This document shows, piece by piece, positions 38,386 through 38,738 of a stretch of 64,000 nt of DNA. The DNA comes from an uncultured delta proteobacterium. Lineage in GTDB: Bacteria > Myxococcota_A > Polyangia > Haliangiales > Haliangiaceae. Under the pieces are notes generated by a model that was not told where the DNA came from, ran no database searches, and saw only the letters and a list, made by a program, of their open reading frames with translations. The stretch spans positions 2,545,341 to 2,609,340 of the forward strand of contig CAVYYE010000003.1 in assembly GCA_963772655.1 (NCBI GenBank), in the 5' to 3' direction. The position numbers and the translations under genes are program-made. Position 1 is the stretch's first letter, and each line of letters opens with the position of its first letter.

Positions 38386-38424
38386 TGGTCACCCCACGTG
38401 ACGGAGGGGTGACCGAGCGCATGG

Positions 38425-38645
38425 CCTTGTTCACCCCGAGGCTTCCGACAGAGAGGTGTCCTGACTTCCGGTTCGTCCTTCGCGGCGCCTTCCCAGTTTC
38501 CCAGTGGCTGGCAGGTGCCCTGCCGCGTCGTCCCCGGTCACAGTAGCGGGGGCTGTGCCGTCTGGGTCGCTCCGAATGGGCGACCGCCGGCTTCCCTGCA
38601 TCCGTCGGAGTATGCGCGATCGATTTCTTAGGTGGTCGTCCTCTT
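38425..38645 (-). promoter_or_regulatory. Cobalamin (B12) riboswitch in the 5' leader of the TonB-dependent receptor gene
   Basis: The reverse complement of the leader contains GGGAAGCCGGCGG, GCCCCCGCTACTGTGA, CCAGCCACTGGGAAACTGGGAAGGC and a B12-box-like AAGTCAGGACACCT. Order and spacing match the E. coli btuB leader. Alternative hairpins follow: GGGGTGA can pair with GTCACCCC, or GTCACCCC can pair with the RBS-proximal GGGGTGAC. Confidence 0.75.
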
Positions 38646-38738
38646 CGAGGGTAGCGAGCCCGCGATCGTGGCGAGCTCGCATCGTGGATAGACGAGACCG
38701 ACCGCCGAGTCAACGGGTGGTTCGTGACCCACCCGAGA

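Follow-up and report, generated by a model that had tools for sequence, protein, structure and literature searches.

A cobalamin riboswitch with a probable btuB-like translational platform in the leader of a TonB-dependent receptor and BtuG-like gene operon of a myxobacterium

In the myxobacterial DNA studied here, the 5' leader of an operon encoding a TonB-dependent receptor and a BtuG-like, lipoprotein-like protein very probably consists of a cobalamin riboswitch with a translational OFF platform of the btuB kind, at 38630..38383 on the minus strand. The stretch analysed, called the window, comprises 64,000 nucleotides (nt) of contig CAVYYE010000003.1 (positions 2,545,341 to 2,609,340, assembly GCA_963772655.1) from an uncultured delta proteobacterium assigned to the Haliangiaceae. 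Coordinates are those of the window unless a related locus is named, and all features of the leader and its operon lie on the minus strand. A riboswitch at this place had been proposed from the letters of the sequence alone, hereafter the original prediction. We followed it up by covariance-model searches, folding, comparison with related leaders and structure modelling of the encoded proteins.

The cobalamin aptamer

With cmscan and Rfam 15, the whole window yielded a single match at or above the gathering score, RF00174 (Cobalamin). The match, at 38630..38439, reaches 60.1 bits against a gathering score of 31.5, with an E-value of 2.2e-12, and covers the model in full (positions 1-189 of 189). 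Within clan CL00101, RF00174 is also the top match for this element. The match is real and well past chance expectation, and there is hardly any doubt that the element is a genuine cobalamin riboswitch.

Read on the minus strand between 38900 and 38200, the conserved blocks are GGGAAGCCGGCGG at 38596..38584, GCCCCCGCTACTGTGA at 38553..38538, CCAGCCACTGGGAAACTGGGAAGGC at 38511..38487 and AAGTCAGGACACCT at 38467..38454. Aligned to the RF00174 consensus, the core blocks GGGAA, GCCCCCGC-ACUGU and GCCACUG and the B12 box (AGUCAGGACACCU, 38454..38466, found by direct reading and in the cmscan alignment) succeed one another in canonical order over 38596..38454. The original prediction had named four cobalamin-aptamer blocks on the minus strand and likened their order to that of the Escherichia coli btuB leader. 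All four are present where it quoted them and in that order, its interval 38386..38650 spans both aptamer and platform, and the RF00174 check that it proposed for 38380..38700, run as cmscan, gave the significant hit described above.

Helix P1 is formed by CCGACGG (38602..38608) and its partner CUGUCGG (38445..38451), as seen in the minimum free energy (MFE) fold of the whole leader and by ortholog comparison. For this comparison we used a set of 77 related loci, obtained from a scan of one genome per species and designated by handles such as L004. The equivalent 7-nt strands of the orthologs pair as well, compensatory changes included (e.g. CCGAUGG/CUAUCGG in L004). The P5/L5 hairpin AGCCCCCGCU (38545..38554), placed by the cmscan alignment, carries in L5 the proposed kissing-loop strand CCCCG (38551..38547). 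The element has a GC content of 66%, and from the architecture of the aptamer we infer a ligand of the adenosylcobalamin type.

A three-segment expression platform

Downstream of the aptamer, the platform MFE contains a P13 hairpin at 38424..38442, in which GCCU (38442..38439) pairs with AGGC (38427..38424) around an 11-nt loop. This loop, L13, starts with CGGGG (38434..38438), which is complementary to L5. Overlapping L13 is the first of three segments, GGGGUGA (38431..38437), a putative anti-sequestor strand. It can form seven base pairs with the second, shared segment GGUCACCCC (DNA GGTCACCCC, 38406..38414), which can pair instead with the third, GGGGUGACC (DNA GGGGTGACC, 38387..38395), the Shine-Dalgarno (SD) region. 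The ATG start codon of the receptor follows at 38383..38385. It is taken from the open reading frame (ORF) list, its position is kept in orthologous leaders, and the alignment of the proteins shows hardly any variation at M1. We take the GGGGUGA of segment 3 to match the extended Shine-Dalgarno sequence that is complementary to the 3' tail of 16S rRNA, segment 2 to mimic the anti-SD and segment 1 to mimic the SD, an assignment made with the general 16S 3' end; the window contains no rRNA gene.

Segments 2 and 3 form a perfect 9-bp hairpin of -19.4 kcal/mol, separated from the ATG by 1 nt; its z-score is -3.0, and 2 of 200 shuffled sequences fold equally well. The 7-bp helix of segments 1 and 2 amounts to -16.3 kcal/mol, interior included. 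Segment 2 is alternately paired to segment 1 or segment 3, and the two pairings are mutually exclusive. Constrained folds of the two states are nearly isoenergetic, at -24.7 kcal/mol with segment 2 paired upstream (ON-like) and -24.5 kcal/mol with L13 blocked, where P13 and the sequestor form (OFF-like). In transcript prefixes of 48-67 nt the helix of segments 1 and 2 folds first, and the ON state is therefore probably co-transcriptional.

A scan for sigma-70 promoters and terminators found no intrinsic terminator-like site in 38000..39200, which makes a translational platform the sensible reading. Sequestration of the ribosome-binding site (RBS) by this platform is very likely. The original prediction had placed three segments before the ATG, GGGGTGA, G(G)TCACCCC and GGGGTGAC(C), able to pair in two alternative ways as a translational on/off switch. 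The segments are indeed found at 38437..38431, 38414..38406 and 38395..38387. Both pairings can form, with the energies just given and with covariation in orthologous leaders, and the translational character is favoured by the lack of a nearby terminator, the RBS-sequestering hairpin and the same covariation.

Conservation of the switch in related leaders

The association of the riboswitch with this receptor family extends well beyond the window. The related loci are mostly from Kofleriaceae (Myxococcota). Among the 30 scanned, RF00174 lies 5' of the receptor gene in 28 (18 of 18 in a first batch and 10 of 12 further ones); it was not found in the other two, both partial matches from Sphingobacterium. 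The positive loci include those whose receptors are only 29-31% identical, from Entotheonella (L071) and from a Myxococcales metagenome-assembled genome (MAG; L073). The B12-box motif AGTCAGGANAYCT stands on the sense strand of 54 related loci and of the window, and the position and orientation of the riboswitch are kept in about 60 loci. The presence of RF00174 even at distant receptors, together with the B12 box in 54 loci, indicates that the link between this receptor family and the cobalamin riboswitch is old and stable.

The two distant loci also have features of their own. In L071, 3' of position 2814, RF00174 precedes a hairpin with nine consecutive U behind it, i.e. a transcription-terminator platform, with no RBS hairpin. 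L073 carries a thiamine pyrophosphate riboswitch (RF00059, 71.8 bits) at 22..116 on the minus strand, about 2.4 kb from its cobalamin riboswitch.

About 50 leaders share a long design. After P1 comes a small hairpin whose loop opens with CGGG, in most cases also a second, variable hairpin rich in GC, then a C-rich strand and, past a loop, GGGGUGAC and the start codon. Before this codon, GUCACGUGGGGUGAC (38383..38403 in the window) is nearly invariant in about 50 leaders; in several orthologs (L009, L038, L058 and L060) it is followed by a GUG or UUG start codon. The typical ortholog P13 reads CUUC-GGGGU-GAAG, and its stem also occurs in the compensatory forms CCUC/GAGG, UCUC/GAGA, AUUC/GAAU, GAUC/GAUC and UUUC/GAAA. 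Other changes concern the switching strands: segment 2 forms CACACC and CACGCC are found only with the segment 1 form GGUGUGA (UCACACC/UCACGCC), and CAUCCC mostly with GGGAUGG (UCAUCCC).

RNAalifold, applied to a MAFFT alignment of 40 platforms, recovered as consensus only a 5-bp GUCAC/GUGAC hairpin. In that alignment the C-rich strand and the variable central part were out of register, and we therefore relied on register-free permutation tests and anchored pair tables instead. The permutation test used 41 non-redundant platforms, a register-free duplex-energy statistic and 5000 permutations. Cognate strands paired better than permuted ones in the helix of segments 1 and 2 (-10.50 against -9.45 kcal/mol), the P13 stem (-3.29 against -2.30) and the helix of segments 2 and 3 (-14.97 against -14.32), each with 0 of 5000 permutations as good when relatedness is ignored.

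The pair tables revealed double-sided changes in all three helices. In the P13 stem, position 2 is C-G in 40 cases, U-A in 4 and A-U in 3, and position 3 is U-A in 27 and C-G in 15. Between segments 1 and 2, one position is G-C in 29 cases, U-A in 3 and U-G in 5, and the next is G-C in 33, A-U in 7 and G-U in 8. The terminal pair of segments 2 and 3 is G-C in 15 cases, C-G in 5 and U-A in 5, and the helix has one C-G to U-A change (L031). Some loci (L035, L059, L045/L066, L057, L051 and L055) were mis-parsed in the platform comparisons, which adds noise against the hypothesis and not for it. Taken as a natural mutagenesis series, the roughly 60 leaders together support a btuB-like switch of three helices.

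Coupling of the aptamer to the platform

The original prediction left unexplained how the choice between the two states is made. A likely refinement is that aptamer and platform are coupled through L5 and L13, since L5 CCCCG (38551..38547) is complementary to L13 CGGGG (38438..38434) over five contiguous bases. Across 47 sequences (46 related loci and the window) L5 reads AGCCCCCGCU, with L031 (CUCCC) as the lone variant; this invariance covers these 47 sequences only, leaving out eight loci in which the extraction of L5 had hit upon an earlier ACTG. All long-form P13 loops contain CGGG. In the model published for E. coli btuB and Priestia megaterium metE, an L5 of consensus UCCCG kisses L13, and P13, stabilised in this way, lets the RBS hairpin or the terminator form; when ligand is missing, the 5' arm of this hairpin or terminator is instead taken up by the 3' side of P13 (PMC10327014). 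With complementarity and invariance on its side but no covariation, the contact is likely though unproven, and we regard the P13 loop as the rather probable partner of L5 in the window.

In the mechanism that we propose, binding of a corrinoid would lead the aptamer to present L5, which would pair with CGGGG in the P13 loop. This contact would hold segment 1 apart from segment 2; the freed segment 2 would then pair with segment 3 in the 9-bp hairpin and block 30S binding. Without ligand, the helix of segments 1 and 2 would form once both have been transcribed, so that the SD and the ATG would be accessible and both proteins would be made. The direction of regulation, with B12 as the OFF signal, is likewise what we infer from the leader.

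Weighing the evidence

Several observations weigh against this reading. The near invariance of L5 deprives the L5-L13 contact of covariation support. Its lone variant, L031 (L5 AGCUCCCGCU, CUCCC), coincides with a segment 3 GGAGUG and a segment 2 CACUCC and not with a changed L13, a triple complementary change which points to the helix of segments 2 and 3 and hints that L5 also, or instead, contacts the SD. GUCACGU, which in the three-segment model is no more than the loop of the sequestor, hardly varies. Eight loci (L011, L012, L018, L022, L039, L046, L050 and L072) lack segments 1 and 2 altogether. The P13 stem of the window is atypical and weaker, GCCU/AGGC with an 11-nt loop compared with CUUC-GGGGU-GAAG in orthologs, and the permutation statistics take no account of phylogenetic relatedness. 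On the side of the protein, the receptor stays below the curated NCBIfam equivalog cut-offs for BtuB, TIGR01779 and NF007926 (48.5 against 599.7 bits and 37.5 against 836, respectively). Finally, the folding that the original prediction had suggested, carried out with and without constraint, gave an unconstrained platform MFE of -26.6 kcal/mol that already holds the sequestor. With the MFE already sequestered and the two states close in energy, the ON state would be favoured by the order of transcription and not by equilibrium. It is either kinetic or only marginally populated, and probably depends on co-transcriptional order.

Part of these observations would fit a different, unlikely mechanism of direct SD occlusion. 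L5 would then pair with the GGGG of the SD region within a small hairpin, GUCAC-GUGGG-GUGAC (38403..38388), and the helix of segments 1 and 2 would be constitutive or accessory. Such a contact would account for the near-invariant GUCACGU, which the three-segment model leaves unexplained, and for the eight related loci without segments 1 and 2, which keep just GU(C/U)ACGUGGGGUGAC before the AUG. The 5-bp GUCAC/GUGAC hairpin is the RNAalifold consensus and leaves GGG in its loop, the ON-like constrained fold of the window includes it, and the only L5 variant, the CUCCC of L031, coincides with a complementary SD GGAG. Against direct occlusion, however, the small hairpin shows one-sided (wobble) changes only, without any compensatory pair, and the L031 evidence comes from a single lineage. 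Between L004 (2837..2928) and L005 (2839..2937), otherwise very similar, the sequestor loop is exactly reverse-complemented (GUCGUCACGU versus ACGUGACGAC); this inversion preserves only the stem of segments 2 and 3, and the small hairpin is lost in L005. The double-sided compensation in the P13 stem and in the helix of segments 2 and 3 is moreover not required if segments 1 and 2 pair constitutively, and the CGGG of long-form P13 loops is invariant. Given the invariance of GUCACGU, the eight short loci and the change in L031, a direct kissing loop between L5 and the SD is nevertheless a live rival or an added mode. L5 may kiss either GGGG loop, that of L13 or that of the SD hairpin, which would combine kinetic and reversible modes of repression in one aptamer.

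A switch that works chiefly on transcription or on the stability of the mRNA, with Rho-dependent termination or RNase access following a translation block and the hairpins being secondary, is very improbable, even if such control could add to translational control and would explain a coordinated control of the second gene. The region 38000..39200 lacks intrinsic terminator-like sites, the helices that are conserved and covary lie around the SD and stop 1 nt short of the ATG, and the U-run terminator of L071 illustrates the form that a transcriptional switch takes in this family. Least of all do we expect a chance or decayed aptamer-like sequence without regulatory function, a notion whose probability is close to nil. 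It could draw on the atypical P13 stem and on the score of the window: of the 28 related matches, 25 score higher, at 71.7-100 bits, and the others (L001, L021 and L020) have 53.7-57.2 bits. The E-value of 2e-12, the full-length model match and the intact core motifs speak against decay, as do the retained position and orientation in about 60 loci and the perfect complementarity of the platform segments. The preferred reading is thus still that of a btuB-like translational switch in which segment 2 would be shared between segments 1 and 3.

Platform variants among relatives

The related leaders also display platforms that depart from the long design. In the eight short ones, about 30 nt separate the B12 box from the AUG, and their remaining hairpin sequence suggests that in those lineages a kissing loop occludes the SD directly. 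A third type is found in L036 (about 2819..2846) and L070 (about 1460..1487), where a P13-like hairpin, CCUC-GGGAC-GGAGG, is directly followed by AAUG; this arrangement places the SD inside or beside the kissing-loop hairpin, without a separate sequestor. On the side of expansion, L064 contains, 3' of position 2789, duplicated modules in the order GGGGUGG ... AUCACCCC ... GGGGUGAU ... AUCCCUC ... GGGGUGAC-GAUG, which would be a five-segment form of the switch. In the leader of L031 (2816..2928), the sequestor loop is enlarged by 45 inserted nt.

The receptor and its BtuG-like neighbour

The first gene of the operon (36247..38385) encodes a TonB-dependent receptor of 712 aa with the architecture expected of BtuB, a plug and a 22-strand barrel (Pfam Plug PF07715, 4e-9, and TonB_dep_Rec_b-barrel PF00593, 5e-29), in agreement with the original prediction. 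Compared with solved structures, the profile of the receptor family matches in its plug E. coli BtuB (1e-13) and Bacteroides thetaiotaomicron BtuB1-3 (5e-12 to 7e-10). An AlphaFold2 model of the receptor, with a predicted local distance difference test (pLDDT) score of 54.9 and the plug not modelled, was too poor for structure search. MAGs labelled Kofleriaceae, Haliangiales or Myxococcota supply almost all homologs of the receptor, and the Kofleriaceae assignment is based on the names of such MAGs. A candidate identity as BtuB orthologue was rejected because the equivalog cut-offs cited above are not reached, and the receptor is accordingly filed only as a probable corrinoid TonB-dependent receptor. 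The riboswitch control, the similarity of the plug to BtuB and the BtuG-like neighbour all suggest that it is probably a corrinoid transporter. The original prediction had already assigned a probable corrinoid substrate, an assignment strengthened by the last two of these features.

The second gene (35113..36237) starts 10 nt past the receptor stop codon and encodes a lipoprotein-like product of 374 aa; it lies directly 3' of the receptor in 60 related loci. No Pfam family matched this product. An AlphaFold2 model built with 30 homologs (pLDDT 88.7) predicts a seven-bladed β-propeller, whose 16 best Foldseek matches in the PDB all belong to the BtuG family, with B. thetaiotaomicron BtuG1/2/3 making up most of them (best E-value 1.7e-13, TM-scores 0.61-0.75, identity 10-15%). 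By two methods, BtuG1/2/3 are the nearest solved folds. A profile search of PDB sequences with the 374-aa family returned no BtuG at E-values up to 1, and the sole sequence signal common to both are repeats of the YVTN/YncE type. The family has six invariant cysteines and the lipobox consensus ...LLAAC-GDN, in which A17, C18 and G19 are nearly invariant; the window copy reads FASLSCSCGDN, a non-canonical lipobox. It is possible, if still tentative, that the riboswitch controls a BtuB-BtuG-like pair, made of a TonB-dependent corrinoid transporter and a dedicated B12-capturing propeller lipoprotein in a myxobacterium.

Promoter and genomic context

A candidate promoter was picked by eye at 38685..38713, with TTGACT (38713..38708), a 17-nt spacer and TATCCA (38690..38685). 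A sigma-70 scan of 38000..39200 that demands T at position 6 of the -10 hexamer found no consensus promoter. The pattern TTGAC-N16-18-TAnnn[A/T] occurs 80-89 nt 5' of the aptamer core in 14 of 55 related loci, and the candidate of the window lies 117 nt upstream. Many orthologs have a GGAGGC motif 3' of the promoter-like site. Just upstream of the candidate, CGGGUGG (38735..38729) can pair with CCACCCG (38720..38714) in a 7-bp hairpin without a U-run, adjoining the stop codon of a truncated-globin-like gene (Bac_globin, E-value 2e-16).

Neither side of the operon has genes related to B12; its neighbours are Ser/Thr kinases with TPR, the truncated-globin-like gene and a short-chain dehydrogenase. 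The kinases flanking the operon, at 32280..35090 on the minus strand and 40230..42404 on the plus strand, are large proteins with TPR repeats, typical of myxobacterial genomes.

Relation to known riboswitches and uptake loci

The closest parallel is the E. coli btuB riboswitch, which also belongs to RF00174, acts on translation and regulates a TonB-dependent B12 receptor. There, L5 and L13 kiss through five contiguous pairs; P13 is thereby stabilised and the RBS hairpin can form, while unstabilised P13 leads to translation (PMC10327014). The window differs from it in its myxobacterial host, in platform sequences that are unrelated, in the apparent absence of P2 and in being known from sequence alone. 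Its switching strands would be GGGGUGA, UCACCCC and GGGGUGA, of which the first mimics the SD, the second mimics the anti-SD and the third is the SD itself, and its operon includes a second, BtuG-like gene. In the corrinoid riboswitch of P. megaterium metE, L13 and the 3' side of P13 pair without ligand with the 5' arm of the regulatory hairpin, and the ligand-induced kissing loop locks P13 so that this hairpin forms (PMC10327014). The metE hairpin is an intrinsic terminator, whereas that of the window is an RBS hairpin without terminator.

The short orthologs (e.g. L012, L022 and L050) resemble the env8 hydroxocobalamin riboswitch, with a single SD-bearing hairpin after P1. In env8 the kissing loop acts directly on the RBS hairpin. 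The window, in contrast, has the long three-segment form, and its aptamer has the peripheral extension typical of RF00174 and presumably not the compact class II architecture.

At the level of gene content, the Bacteroides BtuB-BtuG loci likewise have, in this order, a riboswitch, a TonB-dependent transporter and an adjacent seven-bladed propeller protein, which in Bacteroides is a surface lipoprotein that caps the transporter. The protein of the window differs from Bacteroides BtuG in its 10-15% identity and its phylum, Myxococcota, and is lipoprotein-like by sequence and a propeller by its AlphaFold2 model. BtuG was described as exclusive to Bacteroidetes (PMC6143338; PMC10404256). A literature search for BtuG together with Myxococc* retrieved nothing relevant.

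Significance

The riboswitch itself is ordinary, one more RF00174 element before one more TonB-dependent receptor. Still, it indicates that a receptor family of the Kofleriaceae without other annotation probably has a corrinoid as its substrate. The ortholog series, with its long, short and SD-in-P13 platforms, its loop inversion and its triple compensatory change, raises the question of which GGGG loop L5 contacts.

The most novel item of the locus is the BtuG-like partner gene. If the riboswitch does control a BtuB-BtuG-like pair, lipoprotein-assisted and possibly lipoprotein-capped B12 uptake would exist beyond Bacteroidota, either as an ancient trait or as a convergent one in Kofleriaceae and relatives. 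Should the 374-aa protein bind B12, the Bacteroidota-only statement on BtuG and on lipoprotein-capped TonB-dependent transporters would have to be revised, and a high-affinity system for scavenging B12 would be added to what soil myxobacteria are known to possess.

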